Shown here: piece after piece, positions 19,901 to 54,522 of the stretch
How the letters are laid out: each line of letters starts with the position of its first letter
Numbering within the stretch: the first letter of the stretch is position 1
Source: Vicinamibacterales bacterium
GTDB taxonomy: Bacteria; Acidobacteriota; Vicinamibacteria; Vicinamibacterales; UBA2999
Assembly (NCBI GenBank): GCA_035575715.1
Contig: DATLXN010000045.1
Location: 74,523-138,522 of the forward strand
DNA: 64,000 bases
Reading direction: 5' to 3'
Position numbers and translations under genes: made by a program
The notes under the pieces: generated by a model
What the model was told of the DNA's origin: nothing
The model's input: the letters and a program-made list of their open reading frames with translations, nothing else
The model's database searches: none

Positions 19901-20090
19901 ACACCGCCGACCGCTGCAACCCGGTCTCGACCTGTCGCGCACTGATGACGACACCGGGCAGCATGCCGCCGCTACTGTCAAGCACGCGACCGGCCAGTGT
20001 GGCGGTGGTCTGCGCCACGGCCCTGGAGGGGCTGGCCAGCGGCAGCGCGAGAAGAATGACCAACCAGGCACATGCTCGACGGAGTTTCAT
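16950..20090 (-). CDS. TonB-dependent receptor with N-terminal CarboxypepD_reg-like domain
   Basis: Signal peptide. GRVLDSSGGMLPGVVISARQVETG...YTIASLSPGSYEIRAELSGF (Cna-B/CarboxypepD_reg). Plug and 22-strand barrel length (1046 aa). Terminal ...GVRVRF. Confidence 0.9.
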   Translation of the reverse strand: MKLRRACAWLVILLALPLASPSRAVAQTTATLAGRVLDSSGGMLPGVVISARQVETGLQRSAVSGIDGRYTIASLSPGSYEIRAELSGFRPLVRQGVTLTIAQTAVVDLAMTVGGVSETVTIVAEVPVINTRSGEMSYLVDERSIEELPLNGRNYTDLALLQPSVVAYPHRDGGSVVAHGLGMSVNGQDPRSNVYLLDGTLLNDMTNGPAGSAAGTALGMETVQEFRVETNAYGAEFGRMSGGQINVLTKAGTNDLHGSGYEFHRNDALDAKNYFDVAGKPPFTRNQFGGAVGGPIRTDALFFFAGYESLREHLGRTIISSVPDDNARLGLIPDPATPGALLNVGVNAGVAPYLLEYPRGNGRVLGDGTALHSFQFEQTLAQHFGQGRIDYNVGPGHQMFARYTIDDADQLLPTDYPQFPRSFVSRNQFFTGEYRQALSATTLGTYRFGYSRTRVGQEVQANTSSPLSPFIPGRTLVGNIDVGGLQRFGTQSSVGLKLLQQVLSVQGDITRSAGRHLFKFGGLAERYHQDMVNPTFSLGTYTFANLRAFLENRATSFIGLTPQAEFARDWRFWILGGYAQDEFALGDRLTLNAGLRYEVMTMPRDIAGRDSALINLTDRTATLGQLYEGPDTNNVSPRAGFAWNITGDGLTSLRGGYGMYFNTNSSQNLIVTVTNPPATPRVVFANPTFPNAPFDRTSGLSIRPVQWDVETPRIDVWNVSLQREIFANTAIVVGYAGARGHHLLRSNDANTAVPVTGADGLPFFPVGGPRMNTAWTTIETKTSDGDSWYRALIIEARRRWSKGFMFQSAYTWSKAEDTTQASTFFSDATNGTTSAFPEFIAGYNKGLSDFHAAHNWVVNFSYDVPFARAMSGAAGAILDGWRLSGIINVRTGNPLTVFVQNNRSRSLWQPSLGPGIGRDRASYAPGFGPDEAVTGNPAAWFNPAAFAIPAAGTFGDTGRGDFIGPDLRRFDLSLVKDSAWGAFGPAGRLELRVEAFNIFNRANFGTPQLTAFAGTADVEAPLASFGRIRNTITSARQIQLGVRVRF

Positions 20091-20166
20091 AGGGCTTCCC
20101 GTATACTACGCGCGCTTACCGCTCGACGTTTCGTTGACCGCGGCCGACAACTCCGATTAGACGCAT

Positions 20167-21489
20167 ATGACCGCTCCTAAGCTGACTCCGGTGCAGTGGT
20201 TGATCTGCGCCATTGCCGCACTAGGCTTCGCGTTCGACATTTACGAAGTGCTGATGGCCCCCTTGATCGTCAGTCCGGCGATCGCCGAATTGACCGGCGC
20301 CCGTCCGGGGACGGCCGACTTCAATTACTGGGTGGGCTTGTTTTTCTGGGTGCCGGCCATTGTCGGGGGCGCCTTCGGGCTACTTGGCGGCTATTTGACC
20401 GACGTGTTCGGGCGGCGCCGCGTGCTGGTGTGGAGCATCCTGCTCTACGCATTTTCCGCAATGGCGGCGGGGTTTTCCACCAGCATTGAGATGCTGCTGA
20501 TTCTGCGGTCGACGACTTACATCGGCGTCTTCGTCGAATTTGTCGCTGCGGTCGCCTGGATCGCCGAACTGTTTCCTGATCCGAAGCAGCGCGAATCGGC
20601 ACTGGGATATACCCAGGCCTTTTCATCGATCGGCGGGTTGCTCGTCACGGGGGCGTACTACCTCGCAGTGACATACGCAGACAACTTCCCCGCCATCAAC
20701 GGGGCGCACTCGCCGTGGCGTTACACATTGATATCCGGCGTCATCCCGGCGCTGCCATTGATTTTCATTCGCCCGTTCCTGCCGGAGTCGCCGGCGTGGA
20801 TCCAGAAAAAAGCATCGGGCACATTGCGGCGTCCCAGCATTGCGGCGCTGTTCACGCCCGAACTTCGCCGCACGACGATCGTCACCACGATCCTGTTCGC
20901 GTGTGCCTATGGAGCGGCGTTCGGTGCGATCCAGCAGATGCCGCGTATCGTCCCCGGCCTGGCCGAAGTCCGGGCGCTGCCGGTCCCGCAGCAGCAACAA
21001 ACCGCGACTGCAGTGCAGGCGTATCAGGAAGTCGGCGGCCTGGTCGGGCGCTTCGTCCTCGCCTTCCTTGCGATTCGGATCATTTCGCGCCGGCGGTTGT
21101 TGCATGTCTTCCAGCTGCCCGGCATCTTCATCGTGCCGCTGGTGTTTTTTTACGCGGGGACGACCAGTCTCGAACTGGCGAAATGGGGGATGTTCTTCGC
21201 CGGACTGTTCACCGTGGCGCAGTTTTCGTTCTGGGGTAACTATCTGCCGCGCGTCTACCCGACTCACCTTCGCGGCACCGGCGAAGGCTTCGCCGCCAAC
21301 ATCGGCGGACGCATGCTCGGCACGGGGTTCGCCTTTGTGACGACGCAGTTGACCAACGTGGTGCCCGGACCGACGCCGCAAGTGCGCTTGGCCTATGCGG
21401 CGGCGGGCGTGGCGCTGTTCGTCTATGTCACCGGCTACATTGTCAGTTGGTGGCTGCCTGAACCCAAGAGCGACGCGCTGCCGGAGTAA
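20167..21489 (+). CDS. MFS transporter
   Basis: About 12 predicted TM helices. GGYLTDVFGRRRVL loop 2-3 motif. Confidence 0.85.
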   Translation: MTAPKLTPVQWLICAIAALGFAFDIYEVLMAPLIVSPAIAELTGARPGTADFNYWVGLFFWVPAIVGGAFGLLGGYLTDVFGRRRVLVWSILLYAFSAMAAGFSTSIEMLLILRSTTYIGVFVEFVAAVAWIAELFPDPKQRESALGYTQAFSSIGGLLVTGAYYLAVTYADNFPAINGAHSPWRYTLISGVIPALPLIFIRPFLPESPAWIQKKASGTLRRPSIAALFTPELRRTTIVTTILFACAYGAAFGAIQQMPRIVPGLAEVRALPVPQQQQTATAVQAYQEVGGLVGRFVLAFLAIRIISRRRLLHVFQLPGIFIVPLVFFYAGTTSLELAKWGMFFAGLFTVAQFSFWGNYLPRVYPTHLRGTGEGFAANIGGRMLGTGFAFVTTQLTNVVPGPTPQVRLAYAAAGVALFVYVTGYIVSWWLPEPKSDALPE

Positions 21490-21498
21490 ACCCTCGCG

Positions 21499-21834
21499 AT
21501 GGCCCAACCACCAACCGCTCCGAAGATGGCCAGCGATGACGTCATGACGCTGCTGGAGACGGGTGAAGTGTTTTTTCTCGATGTTCGTGAGCCGAAGGAA
21601 CTGGTGGAACTCGGTACGCTGGAGGGGTACATCAATATTCCACTGGGTCAACTCGAGGCCAGGCTCGCGGACATTCCCAAAGACAAGGCGATTATCACCG
21701 CTTGAAACGGCGGTGGACGCGCCGCGCGTGCCGCGGCGTTACTGGAAGGCCACGGCTACTCTGTTGTGGCCTTCTGCGGTCTCGGTGATTACGCAGGCAG
21801 GCAGGGCAAGGCGAAAATATTTCCCGGCCGCTAA
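21499..21834 (+). CDS. Single-domain rhodanese with in-frame TGA (21703..21705) at the catalytic-Cys position; candidate selenocysteine protein, alternatively a nonsense pseudogene
   Basis: VFFLDVREPKEL...GYINIPLGQL...KDKAIITA-TGA-NGGGRAARAAALLEGHGYSVVAFCGLGDY. The frame stays open to TAA 21832..21834. C-x-x-G-x-R loop with the TGA in the C slot. Confidence 0.6.
21720..21738 (+). other. Candidate bacterial SECIS hairpin
   Basis: CGCCGCG (21720..21726) / CGCGGCG (21732..21738), loop CGUGC. The stem starts 14 nt after the UGA and the loop 21 nt after it. Confidence 0.4.
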
Positions 21835-22193
21835 AGATCAGGCTGGCGATGTTGGTTTGGCGAAAAGGGCAAAGTCGCGGTCACTTACCGCGTGTCCGGC
21901 GCCGGCAATACCGTGATCGAAACATTCCCGGTCGGGACGCCGCATGAACAGGTCACCGTCTATCATCGTGACGGGTCGAACGTCGGCCTGACCCATTACT
22001 GCGTGTCGAACACCAGCCGCGCATGACCTCGGGCGGTCTGCAGTGCAACGTGCTGACCTTCGCGTATACCGGCGAGCTGGCCAAGACCAGCCACATGCAC
22101 GGCGCGCGGCTGGAGCCCGCAGGGCCCTCGACCCGCAGGGGCCTCTCGACCCGCAGGGGCCTCTCGACCCGCAGGGGCCTGGCACCGCTGTGA
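21835..22193 (+). pseudogene. Decayed gene remnant (no start codon, one frameshift, 3' end made of tandem repeats)
   Basis: Open frame right after the rhodanese TAA reads GEKGKVAVTYRVSGAGNTVIETFPVGTPHEQVTVYHRDGSNVGLTHYCVSN. It then needs a 1-nt correction near 22008..22011 to continue as HQPRMTSGGLQCNVLTFAYTGELAKTSHMHGARLEP. The tail is STRRGL x3, encoded by the 18-mer array. Confidence 0.4.
22116..22180. repeat. Tandem 18-bp array CCCGCAGGGGCCTCTCGA, about 3.6 copies
   Basis: Copies at 22116 (16-nt variant), 22132, 22150 and 22168 (partial). Contiguous with no spacers. Confidence 0.85.
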
Positions 22194-22846
22194 CACAAAG
22201 TTACAACTCGGTGTGACGGCGCAGGCATGAGGATTGCCGCACGAATCGCCACACTCATGCCGAGACGACCCAGAGACATTGTCGCCGGCGAGATTTATCA
22301 CGTGATCAATCGAGGCAACGATCGACGCGTCATTTTCTCGCAAGATGCAGATTACGAGCACTTTCTCGACTTGCTCGATCGAGGGTTCGAGCGCGCGGAC
22401 GTTTCCATCCTGGGGTTCTGTGCGATGCCCACGCACTTCCACCTGCTGGTGAGACCGGAGACCAACGATGCGCTTTCTACATACATGCACTGGGTCACTA
22501 GTCGCTACGCCTGCGACTTGCGGGCGAAGAACCAAACGACTGGGAACGGACACGTCTTTCAACGACGTTATTGGTCAAAAGAAATTGCCAGTGAGTCGCA
22601 GTTCTTGACCGTGCTCAGGTACATCGAGGCCAACGCCTTGCGCAGTGAGTTGGTCATGCGAGCGGAGGATTGGCGCTGGGGGAGCCTCGCGGATCGCGAG
22701 GGCGGCTGCCCAAGGCTGATCTGCCCAGCTCCCGTTGCCATCCCCAAAGAATGGGCGGCACTGGTCAATCTTCCCCAAGAGGAATTTCGGCTGCGGCTCA
22801 TTCGCCGCAGCGCAAATCTTGCGCGTCCGTTGTAACAAGTTGTCAC
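22190..22846 (+). mobile_element. Y1-transposase unit bracketed by 18-bp imperfect inverted repeats (RAYT/IS200-like)
   Basis: Left GTGACACAAAGTTACAAC (22190..22207). Right GTTGTAACAAGTTGTCAC (22829..22846), whose reverse complement is GTGACAACTTGTTACAAC. 14/18 identical, with all mismatches in the central 4 nt. Confidence 0.55.
22257..22835 (+). CDS. IS200/IS605-type Y1 (HUH) transposase, REP-associated tyrosine transposase-like
   Basis: MPRRPR...YHVINRGN N-terminus. HUH motif PTHFHLLV. Catalytic-Tyr helix LRYIEANALR. Start taken at ATG 22257. Confidence 0.8.
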   Translation: MPRRPRDIVAGEIYHVINRGNDRRVIFSQDADYEHFLDLLDRGFERADVSILGFCAMPTHFHLLVRPETNDALSTYMHWVTSRYACDLRAKNQTTGNGHVFQRRYWSKEIASESQFLTVLRYIEANALRSELVMRAEDWRWGSLADREGGCPRLICPAPVAIPKEWAALVNLPQEEFRLRLIRRSANLARPL

Positions 22847-23012
22847 AACGGTGCCAGGCTCCGACTACTCGTCGTCAGTTCGAGCGATGACGACGCCGCA
22901 CTGCTCGACCACGGCGGCTGCTGCTTCGGAGGCGACCGTGGGAGAACTGGAAGAACGGGAAGCCCGACGTACCGGCGAGCTTCCGCGTCATTCGCAAACG
23001 CTGAGGCGGGGG

Positions 23013-24011
23013 TCAGCGGGTCGCGGCTTTTTTCGCCCCGACGTCCTCGCCCTTCAGAAACTTCAGCAGCGGCGGATACAAAAGCTCCGGCGCCTCGTAT
23101 TGCGGGTTATGGCCAATGCCTGGAATCAGGTAGAGCTGACCGTTCTGCATCGTGTCGGCGACGCGTTTCGCTTGTGTCGGGTAATTCGGCCCGTCCTTCT
23201 CCCCACCGATCACCAGCGTGCGGGCTTTGATTCGCGGCCAGTCAGAGACCACCGGATCGGCATAGATCGCTTGCTGCTGTAAGGCGCGGACCATCGCCAT
23301 CCGCGGCCAGTCGCCGCTCCTGGTCCAACCGTAATGAATCTTCACGTACTTCATGTACTCCGGCTTCCAGTTCACGTAATAGGCCCGCATGCCTTTCACG
23401 ATCTCGCCGTAGTCACGCGCCAGGGCCGATTTGTAGACTTCGGAGGTGTCGCGCCAGGCCCGGCCGCCACGCGCATCGGTCAGGCCAATCTGGTTGATCA
23501 TCGCCAGGTTGCCGACCATCTCGGGATACGACGCGGCGAAGCGGCTCGCCACCATCCCCCCCATTGAGTGCGTGACGATGTCGGTCGTCTTGATGGCGAG
23601 ATGATCGAGCAATCGCTTGGTGTTCGCCGCATGCGTGCTGATCGAGTAATGGAGGATTGGCTTCGAGGAACGACCGTAGCCAATCTGGTCGATGGCGATG
23701 ACCCGGTAGCCCTCCTTGCGGAGGACTGTGATGGTGTCGGCCCACGCCTCGGCAAAGAAATTCATCCCGTGCAGGAGGATCACGCTCCTGCCATTCGGTG
23801 CGCCCTCCGCGGCGACGTCCATGTAGGCCATTCGCACATCTTCGCCTTCGAGGTTGAAGGCCATCGATGACACCGGATGCGGGTAGGCCACATCTTCCAG
23901 ATTGATGCTCATCGGCCCCCAGTCGGCAGGCGGCGCCGGCGGCGGCTCCTGCTGCGCGAAGGCTGTGGTTGCCGCGCAGATGAACGCGAGCGCAATGACG
24001 ACGTGACGCAT
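23013..24011 (-). CDS. Secreted alpha/beta-hydrolase
   Basis: Signal peptide. HGMNF (oxyanion region). Nucleophile elbow THSMGG. C-terminal GIGHNPQ (His). Confidence 0.85.
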   Translation of the reverse strand: MRHVVIALAFICAATTAFAQQEPPPAPPADWGPMSINLEDVAYPHPVSSMAFNLEGEDVRMAYMDVAAEGAPNGRSVILLHGMNFFAEAWADTITVLRKEGYRVIAIDQIGYGRSSKPILHYSISTHAANTKRLLDHLAIKTTDIVTHSMGGMVASRFAASYPEMVGNLAMINQIGLTDARGGRAWRDTSEVYKSALARDYGEIVKGMRAYYVNWKPEYMKYVKIHYGWTRSGDWPRMAMVRALQQQAIYADPVVSDWPRIKARTLVIGGEKDGPNYPTQAKRVADTMQNGQLYLIPGIGHNPQYEAPELLYPPLLKFLKGEDVGAKKAATR

Positions 24012-24053
24012 AAGAACCTCGTTCCCGTTACCGACGTTGATACCAGCGAGCGA

Positions 24054-25091
24054 ATGTTACACTGCCCGCCCATGTGTGCGCCCAAGACGTGTGGCCTCCT
24101 GATCATGGCGCTGATGCCGGTCGCTGGCGTCCATGTCCAGCAATCACGACAGCTCCCGGTGCTCGACATGCATGTCCACGCACAGGGCGCGGACTCACAG
24201 GGGCCGCCGCCGCTGGCGATTTGCCCAGGCAGCAGTTTTCCTGCCTGGGATCAACGAACCCCGTCGCCCGACACCTTTATTGCCAGCCTGAAAAAGCCGG
24301 CGTGTGCCGAACCGGTCTGGTCGCCGACAACCGACGATGGGCTACGAGAGCAGACGGTCGCGGCCTTGCATCGGCGCAACGTCATCGCCCTGCTCGGCGG
24401 CACCCCGGCGCGTGTGCAGCGCTGGATGCAGGACGCGCCCGGCCAGGTGATCCCGTCGCTCAGCTTCAAACTCGACCCTGACGCTCCAACGCCAGCCGCC
24501 GTCCGTGAACTGCACGCCTCCGGACGCATTCGCGCCCTCGCCGAGGTGACCAATCAATACGCCGGCATCGCCGCAGACGATGCCGCGTTTGAACCGTACC
24601 TGGCCGCGGCTGAAGCGATCGACTTGCCGGTCGGCATTCACGTTGGCCCTGGGCCGCCTGGCGCGCCATATCTCGGGTTCACTGGTTATCGCGCGCGGCT
24701 ACACAGTGCGCTGGCGCTCGAGGAACCGTTGCTCAAACATCAAAAGCTGCGCGTCTTCGTCATGCATGCCGGGTGGCCGATGATCGACGACATGCTGGCC
24801 GTGATGTGGGCGCACCGCCAGGTCTATGTCGAAGTCGGTGTGATCGTGTGGGCCTTACCGCGCGCGGAGTTTTATCGCTACCTGCACCGCCTCGTTGACG
24901 CCGGGTTTGGTGATCGGGTGATGTTTGGGTCGGACCAGATGGTGTGGCCCGGGCTGATTGAACACAGCATTCGCGTCATCGAAGAGGCGCCGTTGCTGTC
25001 GGCCGCGCAAAAGCGCGACATCTTGTATAACAACGCCGCTCGGTTCTTGCGCTTGCCGCAAGCGGACATCGACCGCCATCACGGCCGCTAA
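24054..25091 (+). CDS. Amidohydrolase-2 family metal-dependent hydrolase
   Basis: LDMHVHA metal site near the N-terminus. FVMHAGWP. MFGSDQMVWP near the C-terminus. The start is 24054 or 24072. The ORF-track start 23877 overlaps the opposite gene. Confidence 0.8.
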   Translation: MLHCPPMCAPKTCGLLIMALMPVAGVHVQQSRQLPVLDMHVHAQGADSQGPPPLAICPGSSFPAWDQRTPSPDTFIASLKKPACAEPVWSPTTDDGLREQTVAALHRRNVIALLGGTPARVQRWMQDAPGQVIPSLSFKLDPDAPTPAAVRELHASGRIRALAEVTNQYAGIAADDAAFEPYLAAAEAIDLPVGIHVGPGPPGAPYLGFTGYRARLHSALALEEPLLKHQKLRVFVMHAGWPMIDDMLAVMWAHRQVYVEVGVIVWALPRAEFYRYLHRLVDAGFGDRVMFGSDQMVWPGLIEHSIRVIEEAPLLSAAQKRDILYNNAARFLRLPQADIDRHHGR

Positions 25092-44487: not shown

Positions 44488-45867
44488 ATGGCCACTTCGA
44501 CCCCTCCAACCGACAACATCCTCGGCACGATCGGTGACACGCCGTTGGTGCGGATCAATCGCATCACGCACGGCATTGTCGCCGCCGATGTGTTTGCCAA
44601 AATCGAAACATTCAACCCGGGAAACTCGATCAAGGACCGGATGGCCTTGAAGATGATTGAGGATGCCGAGCGCAGCGGCAAGCTGAAGCCGGGCGGCACG
44701 ATCATCGAAGGCACCTCCGGCAACACCGGGATGGGCCTGGCCATGGCCGCGGTGGTCAAAGGCTACAAGTGCATCTTCACGACGACTGACAAACAGTCCA
44801 AGGAGAAGGTCGACGCACTGAAGGCGTTTGGCGCCGAAGTCATCGTCTGTCCCACCGACGTTGAACCCGAAGATCCGCGGTCGTATTACTCGGTGTCCTC
44901 GCGCCTCGAGCGCGACACGCCGAACTCGTGGAAGGCCAACCAGTACGACAACTTGTCGAACCGTCAGGCGCACTACGAGCAGACCGGACCGGAACTGTGG
45001 GAACAGACGGGCGGTCGCATCGATCACCTCGTGTCAGGCGTCGGCACCGGCGGGACGATTTGCGGTGTCGGCAGGTACTTAAAGGAACGCAAGCCGAAGA
45101 TCAAAATATGGGGGATCGACACCTACGGGTCGGTGTTCAAGAAATACAAAGAGACCGGCGTCTTCGACAAGAACGAGATCTATCCCTACATCACCGAAGG
45201 GATCGGCGAAGACTTCCTGCCCCAGAACGTCGACTTCTCGGTTATTGATGCGTTCGAAAAAGTGACCGACAAGGATGCGGCGGTGATGACCCGGCGGATC
45301 ACGCGAGAAGAAGGAATCTTTGCCGGCAATTCAGCCGGCGCCGCCCTGGCCGGCTTGCTGCAGTTAGCGCCGCACTTCACAGCCGGCCAGACCGTCGTGG
45401 TGATTTTTCACGACCATGGCACCCGATACCTTGGCAAGATGTTCAACGACGACTGGATGCGCGAGAAGGGTTTTCTGTCGCCAGAGGGTCTGACCGCGCG
45501 TGACCTGGTGGCCAACAAGAAGACGTCGCCGATGGTGACCATCGATTGCGCCGAGACGGTCGCCGAGGCCGCGCGCCTGATGACCCAGCACGGGTTCTCC
45601 CAAGTGCCGGTGACTTCAAACGGCCGCATCGTGGGATCAGTCAGCGAGACGCGGCTCTACTCAGAGATCGTCAAGAGTCCCGAAGTCAAGCGCGGTCCGG
45701 TTGAAGCGATCATGGGCGCGGCGTTTCCGTTTGCCGACGTGTCCACCAATATCGATGCCCTGGCGACGATGTTGACACCGGAAAATCCCGCCGTCCTGGT
45801 GCGCGACTTCAAGAGCGATGAGACCTACATCATCACCCGCTCAGACGTGATCCAGGCGCTCAGCTAG
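44488..45867 (+). CDS. Cystathionine beta-synthase-like PLP enzyme (CysK/CysM fold + C-terminal CBS pair)
   Basis: GDTPLVRINR, NPGNSIKDRMA (PLP Lys), GTSGNTG, GTGGTI. The C-terminal ~120 aa show a CBS-domain pattern. Confidence 0.85.
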   Translation: MATSTPPTDNILGTIGDTPLVRINRITHGIVAADVFAKIETFNPGNSIKDRMALKMIEDAERSGKLKPGGTIIEGTSGNTGMGLAMAAVVKGYKCIFTTTDKQSKEKVDALKAFGAEVIVCPTDVEPEDPRSYYSVSSRLERDTPNSWKANQYDNLSNRQAHYEQTGPELWEQTGGRIDHLVSGVGTGGTICGVGRYLKERKPKIKIWGIDTYGSVFKKYKETGVFDKNEIYPYITEGIGEDFLPQNVDFSVIDAFEKVTDKDAAVMTRRITREEGIFAGNSAGAALAGLLQLAPHFTAGQTVVVIFHDHGTRYLGKMFNDDWMREKGFLSPEGLTARDLVANKKTSPMVTIDCAETVAEAARLMTQHGFSQVPVTSNGRIVGSVSETRLYSEIVKSPEVKRGPVEAIMGAAFPFADVSTNIDALATMLTPENPAVLVRDFKSDETYIITRSDVIQALS

Positions 45868-45914
45868 ACGCCCTCGGCCGCAAGTTAACTAGACGCCCTC
45901 GGCCGCAAGTTAAG
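45865..45914. repeat. Tandem duplication, 2 x 25 bp (TAGACGCCCTCGGCCGCAAGTTAA[C/G])
   Basis: 24/25 identical. Copy 1 begins with the TAG stop of the upstream gene. Copy 2 ends 8 nt before ATG 45923. Confidence 0.9.
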
Positions 45915-54478: not shown

Positions 54479-54483
54479 TACGT

Positions 54484-54518
54484 TTCGTCTTTCGTCTTTC
54501 GTCTTTCGTCTTTCGTCT
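54484..54518. repeat. Tandem heptamer array TTCGTCT x5 (perfect)
   Basis: Occupies most of the 44-bp spacer between the SDR stop (54523) and the cupin start (54478) on the minus strand. Confidence 0.9.
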
Positions 54519-54522
54519 TTCT

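Follow-up and report, generated by a model that had tools for sequence, protein, structure and literature searches.

A probable TIRtron in an uncultured soil lineage: a single-copy RAYT-class gene with its cognate inverted repeats

We analysed a 64,000-nt stretch of DNA from a Vicinamibacterales bacterium (GenBank assembly GCA_035575715.1, contig DATLXN010000045.1, positions 74,523 to 138,522 of the forward strand), which we refer to as the window and number from its first letter. Our subject is a gene for a small HUH-Y1 protein, related to the RAYT proteins that accompany repetitive extragenic palindromic (REP) sequences, together with the inverted repeats that bracket it and the short tandem array and decayed gene that lie upstream (Table 1).

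Table 1. Features of the RAYT-like locus, in window coordinates
Feature	Position	Strand	Details
Pseudogene remnant, ~90 codons	21853..22124	+	N-terminally truncated, frameshift near 22008, 3' end overrun by the array
Tandem array, 3.7 copies of the 18-nt unit CCCGCAGGGGCCTCTCGA	22116..22180	+	Tandem Repeats Finder score 116
Left arm	22174..22207	+	box GGGGCCTGGCACC at 22174-22186; hairpin TGTGAC (22189-22194)/GTTACA (22200-22205), loop ACAAA
TIRYT/RAYT-like HUH-Y1 gene, 192 aa	22257..22835	+	Pfam Y1_Tnp 1.9e-16; NCBIfam REP_Tyr_transpos; homologue alignment
Right arm	22829..22862	-	on the bottom strand: box GGAGCCTGGCACC, hairpin TTGTGAC/GTTACAA, loop core ACTT

Both motifs that an initial annotation of this DNA had read in the gene, THFHLLV and LRYIEANALR, are present in the open reading frame (ORF). 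The HuH motif is T-H-F-H, the catalytic Tyr lies in RYIEANA, and the protein also carries GHVFQRRYW and a RAEDWRWGS tail. On the other hand, the start at 22227 listed for this ORF should be replaced by ATG 22257. All 37 aligned homologues start with MPR or MAR at the position of this codon, and a 98%-identical sister strain (L002, L003 and L004) carries a 1-nt deletion between the two ATGs that would break the longer frame. Because the homologues begin there and the deletion spares only the shorter frame, ATG 22257 is almost certainly the true start codon, the in-frame ATG upstream probably remaining unused. At its C-terminus the protein ends in ...RRSANLARPL, and in the alignment the longer relatives go on with GRPxG...GRPRK.

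In the window protein Pfam recognised only Y1_Tnp, and no C-terminal helix-turn-helix (HTH)-like domain (Bac_DnaA_C, HTH_23 or HTH_28-like). Among the NCBIfam models, REP_Tyr_transpos scored 80.2 bits (cutoff 80), against 20.3 bits for transpos_IS200 (cutoff 55). When the protein alone was compared with the PDB, only the E. coli TnpA_REP structure 4ER8 was matched (E 0.13). A profile built from 38 family members matched the same structure at 3.1e-11, over the whole core and the DWxWSS tail, and reached ISDra2 and the other IS200-type TnpAs at only 2e-4 to 1e-2. The similarity to E. coli TnpA_REP is distant, with 15 bits pairwise and 46 bits with the profile. H60, H62, Y122 and N126 are invariant in the 38 aligned sequences. 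The window protein combines THFH with YIEANA where its relatives have NHFH and YIE.NP/A, its single catalytic Tyr thus lying in a Y---N(P) motif and not in the Y---Q of IS200. The NCBIfam scores and the 4ER8 profile match agree with the earlier proposal of a RAYT rather than an IS200/IS605 transposase, and these comparisons support placing the protein with TnpA_REP/RAYT.

The repeats on either side of the gene had been described as 18-bp sequences. They are real: the left 18-mer, GTGACACAAAGTTACAAC, lies exactly at 22190-22207, the right one, GTGACAACTTGTTACAAC, is the reverse complement of 22829-22846, and the two match at 14 of 18 positions, the four mismatches making up the central tetranucleotide. 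As had also been stated, the right copy overlaps the stop codon (TAA, 22833-22835). The true length is nevertheless 34 nt per arm, since each repeat extends outward through GCCTGGCACCG, which had been overlooked. The arms, delimited by an inverted-repeat search, are 82% complementary and contain no GTAG. Each is made up of a 13-nt near-palindromic box, a spacer of 2-3 nt and a 6-7-bp hairpin, TGTGAC/GTTACA, that includes one G.T pair; covariance-model scores are 61 bits for the right arm and 59.6 bits for the left. The G.T pair makes the hairpin more stable on whichever strand has the box 5' of it, which at the left end means the top strand and at the right end the bottom strand. In DNA folding the right arm reached -13.3 kcal/mol (z -3.2) on the bottom strand versus -10.5 on the top strand, and the left-arm hairpin was weak. 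It is this hairpin that constitutes the relevant structure of each arm, and not the short palindromes previously assigned to both flanks, as TTGTAACAA and TTGTCACAA are both confined to the right flank.

The degenerate motif GTGACANNNNGTTACAAC occurs exactly twice in the 64 kb, with 0.18 matches expected at two mismatches or fewer. A promoter and terminator scan returned no site at either arm, and no T-run follows the hairpins. Furthermore, an Rfam scan of 20000-24500 gave no match at E up to 1, a tRNA scan of the window found none, and inspection by eye revealed no target-site duplications outside the arms.

We found the same architecture in the relatives of this gene. In an alignment of seven arms (the left and right arms of the window, L002 and L026, and one solo copy described below), the 25 invariant columns comprise GCCTGGCACCG, GTGACA and GTTACAA. 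L026, whose protein is 66% identical to that of the window, retains the arm core at both ends. L005, with a 57%-identical orthologue, keeps it in part while the remaining intergenic DNA can no longer be aligned. The persistence of GCCTGGCACCG..GTGACA in these two loci bears out the earlier view of the inverted repeats as the cognate repeats of the gene. The window and L026 also share an asymmetry of the loops, (C/G)AAA on the left and ACTT on the right, despite a protein divergence of 34%.

In L005 the core takes the form of the perfect palindrome GTGCCWGGCAC, with 4+4 copies around the gene and none elsewhere in 20 kb (0.01 expected), and one of these copies continues as GCCTGGCACCGCCCTGTGACC, which resembles the window arm. 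In more distant loci the architecture is kept with other sequences. The inverted repeat of L006 is 35 nt long and extends over the stop codon, L016 has a matching inverted-repeat pair around the gene, L027 a set of 4+4 GGGGACTGTCCCC palindromes bracketing it, and L028 a 43-nt inverted repeat that is 91% complementary. The arms of L027 and L028, which encode 54%-identical relatives, contain GGGGACAG, in agreement with the published motif GGGGWSAS; the window arm, which starts GGGGCCTG, agrees with it at 6 of 8 positions and hence lacks the motif. Bracketing inverted repeats were thus present in all seven lineages examined (the window and six further ones), and this comparison shows that the repeats covary with the protein across lineages while the architecture persists.

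The tandem array upstream of the gene had been counted at about 3.6 contiguous copies, close to the 3.7 reported by Tandem Repeats Finder. It was said to adjoin the left repeat; it does lie next to it but in fact overlaps it, the last unit being the outer end of the left arm (GGGGCCT). The 18-nt unit corresponds to the outermost 13 nt of the left-arm region, CCCGCAGGGGCCT, followed by CTCGA, and the last copy runs straight into the box. In the sister strain, which is 95.5-96.3% identical to the window in the flanks and 98.1% in the gene, the array site holds one unit, TCGAGCCCTCAGGGGCCT, and L002 has a perfect 27-nt duplication (two copies of AGGCCCCGACTACGGTCGTCAGTGCGA) starting at the outer end of the right arm. 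In L026, GACCGCGGGGCCT units form an irregular run at the corresponding place on the left, and the right side has an 18-nt duplication (two copies of GCGGTGCCAGGCCCGCAA). Since arrays or duplications at the arm ends differ between the window, the sister strain and L026, we interpret them as recurrent, strain-specific local amplifications of the arm ends and not as a dispersed repeat. The bacterial interspersed mosaic elements (BIMEs) beside E. coli tnpA_REP likewise vary in number between strains, and "local amplification" has been proposed for them (Ton-Hoang et al., PMC3333891). As a separate observation, the Logan contig L001, which carries an identical gene, has its position 1 at window ~22151, within the 18-nt array, which is therefore an assembly breakpoint in short-read data.

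The array encodes the STRRGL x3 tail of the ORF at 22023-22193, as previously noted, and the start-less, frameshifted upstream ORF was likewise recognised correctly, its single frameshift falling between ...THYC and QPRM.... Once reconstructed, this remnant matched no Pfam family, and tblastn against the related loci gave no counterpart. Because about 310 bp of this region is deleted in L002, this ORF is a pseudogene undergoing decay.

Four contigs, each from a different sample, encode the identical protein or its 99% variant, and all of them show one context: TonB-dependent receptor, MFS transporter, rhodanese, RAYT-like gene and alpha/beta hydrolase. Neither a second copy or fragment of the gene nor another copy of the whole unit, a possibility that the initial annotation had raised, is present in the 64 kb, and no tnpB-like ORF adjoins the window gene. 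In a database of 5.8 billion proteins, the nearest relative beyond the species is only 66% identical. On the 677-kb contig L005, the 57%-identical gene directly follows the orthologous MFS gene (82% aa) and shares its neighbourhood with the orthologous hydrolase (82% aa), cupin and GlnRS genes. Two further relatives, P0025 and P0019, have one context each in 24 contigs, and both contexts are mutually syntenic. Between the window and L002, the RAYT-like gene differs by 9 synonymous and 2 nonsynonymous codon changes, which demonstrates purifying selection. Based on the single fixed context, the syntenic 57% orthologue, the lack of a second copy in the window and this 9:2 ratio, the gene appears to be a domesticated, vertically inherited and fixed chromosomal gene, and not an active insertion sequence (IS). 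Such properties characterise domesticated, vertically inherited RAYTs (Bertels et al. 2017, PMC5581495).

Two side observations concern these neighbourhoods. Across window positions 20167-24011, divergence from L002 is mosaic, with 93.1% nucleotide identity in the MFS gene (78 synonymous changes), 98.1% in the RAYT-like gene and 97.8% in the hydrolase gene, a pattern which suggests recombination or a recent sweep over the element and its right flank. In addition, a second Y1_Tnp paralogue of 195 aa, 43% identical to the window protein, lies ~5 kb from the P0019-type gene (L020:739-1326 and L022:3322-3909).

We next consider how far the repeats are dispersed. A covariance-model scan of the whole window with filters off recovered the two arms only, the next match scoring 8 bits. 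Screening 185,579 species genomes, a set that does not include the source genome, for GCCTGGCACCGNNGTGACA gave 109 stretches, nearly all of them single chance matches in coding sequences of unrelated taxa. With the strict pattern GGCACCGNNGTGACANNNNGTTACAA (20 fixed bases), the JGI metagenomes yielded the RAYT locus (two matches), one chance match within a TonB-receptor coding sequence, present in three samples, and one solo copy. This solo copy (L138:4241-4266), whose GGTGCCAGGCACC box is perfect, is identical to the window left arm at 30 of 34 positions. A folA-like and a nuoG-like gene converge on the 76-nt spacer that holds it, and the copy abuts the folA-like stop codon. The L138 contig comes from a sample that also holds the RAYT locus (L003), and in GC content (0.644) and in tetranucleotide correlation with the window (0.983) it equals the conspecific contig L002. 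Another solo arm was found in the L006 lineage, whose P0025-type gene encodes a protein ~48% identical to that of the window (L006:16700-16730, also in L007, L009 and L010). This arm, conserved in four samples, is intergenic, located 6 kb away from the gene and immediately preceded by a terminator-like hairpin.

Given these solo copies in L138 and the L006 lineage, and none extra in the window, the repeats appear to be dispersed at low copy number, like those of RAYT Group 1 and TIRYT genes rather than with the abundance of classical REPs. Taken together, the 64-kb scan and the strict metagenome scan set an upper bound of about one copy per 20 kb, which would fit no more than a small family. 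The abundant REP/BIME-like family once envisaged here is not supported, with zero extra copies in 64 kb by covariance model and one solo match in the JGI scan.

Prior studies have described similar arrangements under the names TIRYT and TIRtron, in which RAYT-like genes are flanked by long inverted repeats that sometimes overlap the 3' end of the gene ('3'ov'); these repeats show partial self-complementarity, may occur in clusters and make up families of moderate abundance at most, and a sharply defined group of TIRYT proteins is acidobacterial (Di Nocera et al. 2013, BMC Genomics 14:522, PMC3733652). The same study found GGGGWSAS in many, though not all, TIRYT repeats and did not treat it as obligatory. 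What the window locus shares with TIRYTs is a RAYT-like Y1 gene placed between long inverted repeats that have no relation to GTAG REPs, the right one lying over the 3' end, as well as GGGGWSAS in the repeats of the relatives L027 and L028. It differs in the motif itself, the window box being GGGGCCTGGCACC, and the comparison with the published acidobacterial TIRYTs is one of descriptions and not of aligned proteins. The idea that this is a domesticated RAYT flanked by REPs thus holds for the flanking inverted repeats, but these belong to the variant flanked by terminal inverted repeats (TIRs), named TIRYT/TIRtron, and are not REPs (PMC3733652).

Resemblances to other Y1 systems are more partial. 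TnpA_Y1 subclass 2.1, equivalent to the RAYT Group 1 of Bertels, has as its second signature NH[YF]H, FQ and Y[IV]HLNP (Quentin et al. 2018, PMC6006769), and the 16-mers flanking Group 1 genes occur about 12 times genome-wide (Bertels et al. 2017, PMC5581495). The window protein shares the motifs xH[YF]H, FQ and Y[IV]..N, the low copy number and the lack of a canonical GTAG REP. Like the E. coli REPtron with its TnpA_REP (Ton-Hoang 2012, PMC3333891; Messing 2012), the locus has a single-copy, vertically inherited Y1 gene, for which 4ER8 is the best solved-structure match, inverted flanking cognate repeats composed of a 5' guide box and an imperfect hairpin, and tandem units whose number varies between strains. 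Unlike it, the window has no GTAG, its repeats number a handful at most instead of hundreds, and its box is an 11-13-nt near-palindrome. With IS200/IS605 TnpAs it has in common the HUH/Y1 fold, the Pfam Y1_Tnp family and hairpins near the ends. IS200 elements, in contrast, have Y...Q, no inverted repeats, both hairpins on one strand, many identical copies and often tnpB, and the window locus shows no such feature.

Considering all the above results, we believe that the locus is in all likelihood a TIRtron, that is, a domesticated, single-copy and fixed gene of the Y1 (HUH) TnpA_REP/RAYT class, of TIRYT type and subclass 2.1-like, together with its cognate inverted repeats. Such an arrangement has already been described in Acidobacteria and other bacteria, and the window locus is a further example of it. 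E. coli TnpA_REP binds a 5' guide and an imperfect hairpin on single-stranded DNA, then cleaves and rejoins it (PMC3333891). By analogy, the window protein may bind the box and hairpin as single-stranded DNA, for example on the lagging-strand template, with the 11-13-nt box taking the place of GTAG as the 5' guide. The G.T-dependent hairpin would direct it to the top strand at the left end and to the bottom strand at the right end, and cleavage and rejoining nearby would proceed through the catalytic Tyr of RYIEANA. The few solo copies would be substrates in trans and the enzyme's own flanks substrates in cis, without the gene itself being moved; the 18-nt array would be a by-product, the outer end of the left arm having been amplified locally and variably between strains. 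Single-stranded DNA binding, cleavage, mobilisation in trans and the cause of the array are what we infer from this analogy.

Several points weigh against such an assignment. The REP_Tyr_transpos score sits right at the model's cutoff, and the protein is known here from its sequence alone. It has T where the family has N before the HuH motif, and its Tyr motif ends in NA where that of the class ends in NP. With 192 aa against a median of 238 for subclass 2.1, it belongs to a clade without the distal C-terminal HTH-like domain of this subclass, which relatives of 220-250 aa keep in the alignment. The repeats were counted in the 64-kb window and in the metagenome scan, and not genome-wide, the GTDB representative set lacking the source genome. 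Only one solo copy came to light, and its assignment to the same organism relies on sample and composition. Finally, a squalene-cyclase-like gene found 1.6 kb downstream of the RAYT-like gene in L005 has its L026 counterpart (66% aa) upstream of it, which means that the surroundings of the element have been reorganised, by some movement or by local rearrangement.

This last point would fit an autonomous, low-copy insertion sequence in which gene and flanks move together and the 34-bp repeats are the terminal inverted repeats. The repeats do bracket the gene tightly, up to the overlap with the stop codon, and the gene and hydrolase region is 98% identical between strains when the MFS gene is only 93% identical. 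We nonetheless consider such an element unlikely. The context is the same on four contigs from four samples and in the 57%-identical orthologue, the 64 kb contain no second copy or fragment, and the closest relative outside the species is just 66% identical. P0025 and P0019 are each restricted to one context in 24 contigs, and the arms have multiplied into clusters in L005, L027 and L028, unlike the ends of an IS. Still less likely, in our view, is that the repeats serve as cis-regulatory or RNA elements (operator, terminator or mRNA stabiliser) instead of enzyme substrates. The box GGTGCCWGGCACC is a double-strand palindrome of the type bound by dimeric regulators, the hairpin of the right arm lies at the 3' end of the mRNA, and the solo copy abuts the folA-like stop codon. 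Against this stand the blank terminator scan and the absence of a T-run at both arms, the G.T pair that makes the hairpin strand-specific, and a repeat sequence that changes with the protein under a constant architecture, as expected of an enzyme and its substrate. A regulatory role and a role as enzyme substrate are not mutually exclusive.

The initial annotation had further suggested that the 18-mer CCCGCAGGGGCCTCTCGA is itself the REP dispersed by the enzyme. It is indeed repeated and directly adjoins the gene. However, no copy exists beyond the array in 64 kb even at 3 mismatches, the 98%-identical strain has one unit, the units run head-to-tail and not inverted, without a hairpin, and the unit is merely the outer arm end plus 5 nt. 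The array being local and strain-variable, this suggestion is effectively refuted.

Under the TIRtron interpretation, one may ask whether the strain-specific arrays record, as in vivo footprints, cutting and joining by the enzyme at its own flanks. On its inner side the window array stops at GGGGCCT|GGCACC, and the 27-nt duplication of L002, at the right end, stops at the matching point of the box (GGTGCC|AGGCCCC). The window array is compatible with the C|T cleavage rule of E. coli TnpA_REP. As a general rule for the array junctions, C|T was not consistent, as the L002 duplication has a G|T left boundary and the right-end boundaries of L026 differ. We regard the footprint idea as rather improbable. 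If it were true, natural variation would map the cleavage specificity of TIRYTs, and a domesticated enzyme would be seen to act on its own ends. To our knowledge, TIRYT cleavage specificity has never been determined.

Altogether, the locus adds a well-resolved, TIR-flanked RAYT-like gene (a probable TIRtron) from an uncultured soil lineage that is probably acidobacterial. It also provides comparative evidence on three points, namely that the repeat core is conserved with the protein, that left and right loops consistently differ, and that the arm ends vary by strain. It opens no new question; its main use would be as a clean natural substrate pair for TIRYT binding and cutting.

Outside this lineage, two Ilumatobacteraceae metagenome-assembled genomes (MAGs) carry a dispersed palindrome of ~34 nt, TGTCAC-N3-4-GGTGCCTGGCACC-N3-4-GTGACA, which resembles the right and left arms of the window fused head to head. 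The loci are L030, L037, L041, L047, L060, L075, L077, L080 and L102 in MAG CAZQCP01, and L057, L069, L076, L106 and L108 in MAG CAVYWH01. Similar single palindromes occur in a Thermoleophilia MAG (L099), a Mycobacterium (L098) and a Clostridia MAG (L074). A tblastn search with the window protein found no RAYT homologue within the 8-kb stretches around the Ilumatobacteraceae palindromes, which could be right-end/left-end junction products of a related element.

The rhodanese-domain ORF upstream of the locus (111 codons, 21499-21834; Pfam 7e-12 when read through) contains an in-frame TGA (21703-21705) at the position of the catalytic Cys of the C-X4-R loop (A-[TGA]-NGGGR). This TGA and the intact frame downstream of it are conserved in three other assemblies (L002-L004); the codon may encode selenocysteine or be a nonsense mutation that has become fixed. 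Downstream of the TGA, a search for a fold like the selenocysteine insertion sequence (SECIS) found a hairpin, which did no better than those of shuffled sequence (z -0.85). The rhodanese ORF differs between the window and L002 by 8 synonymous and 8 nonsynonymous changes. Elsewhere in the window, we noted tandem repeats of CAGTGGT (x9, 1862-1925), of a perfect 25-nt unit (x2, 45864-45913) and of TTTCGTC (x5.6, 54483-54521), which appear unrelated to the RAYT-like locus.

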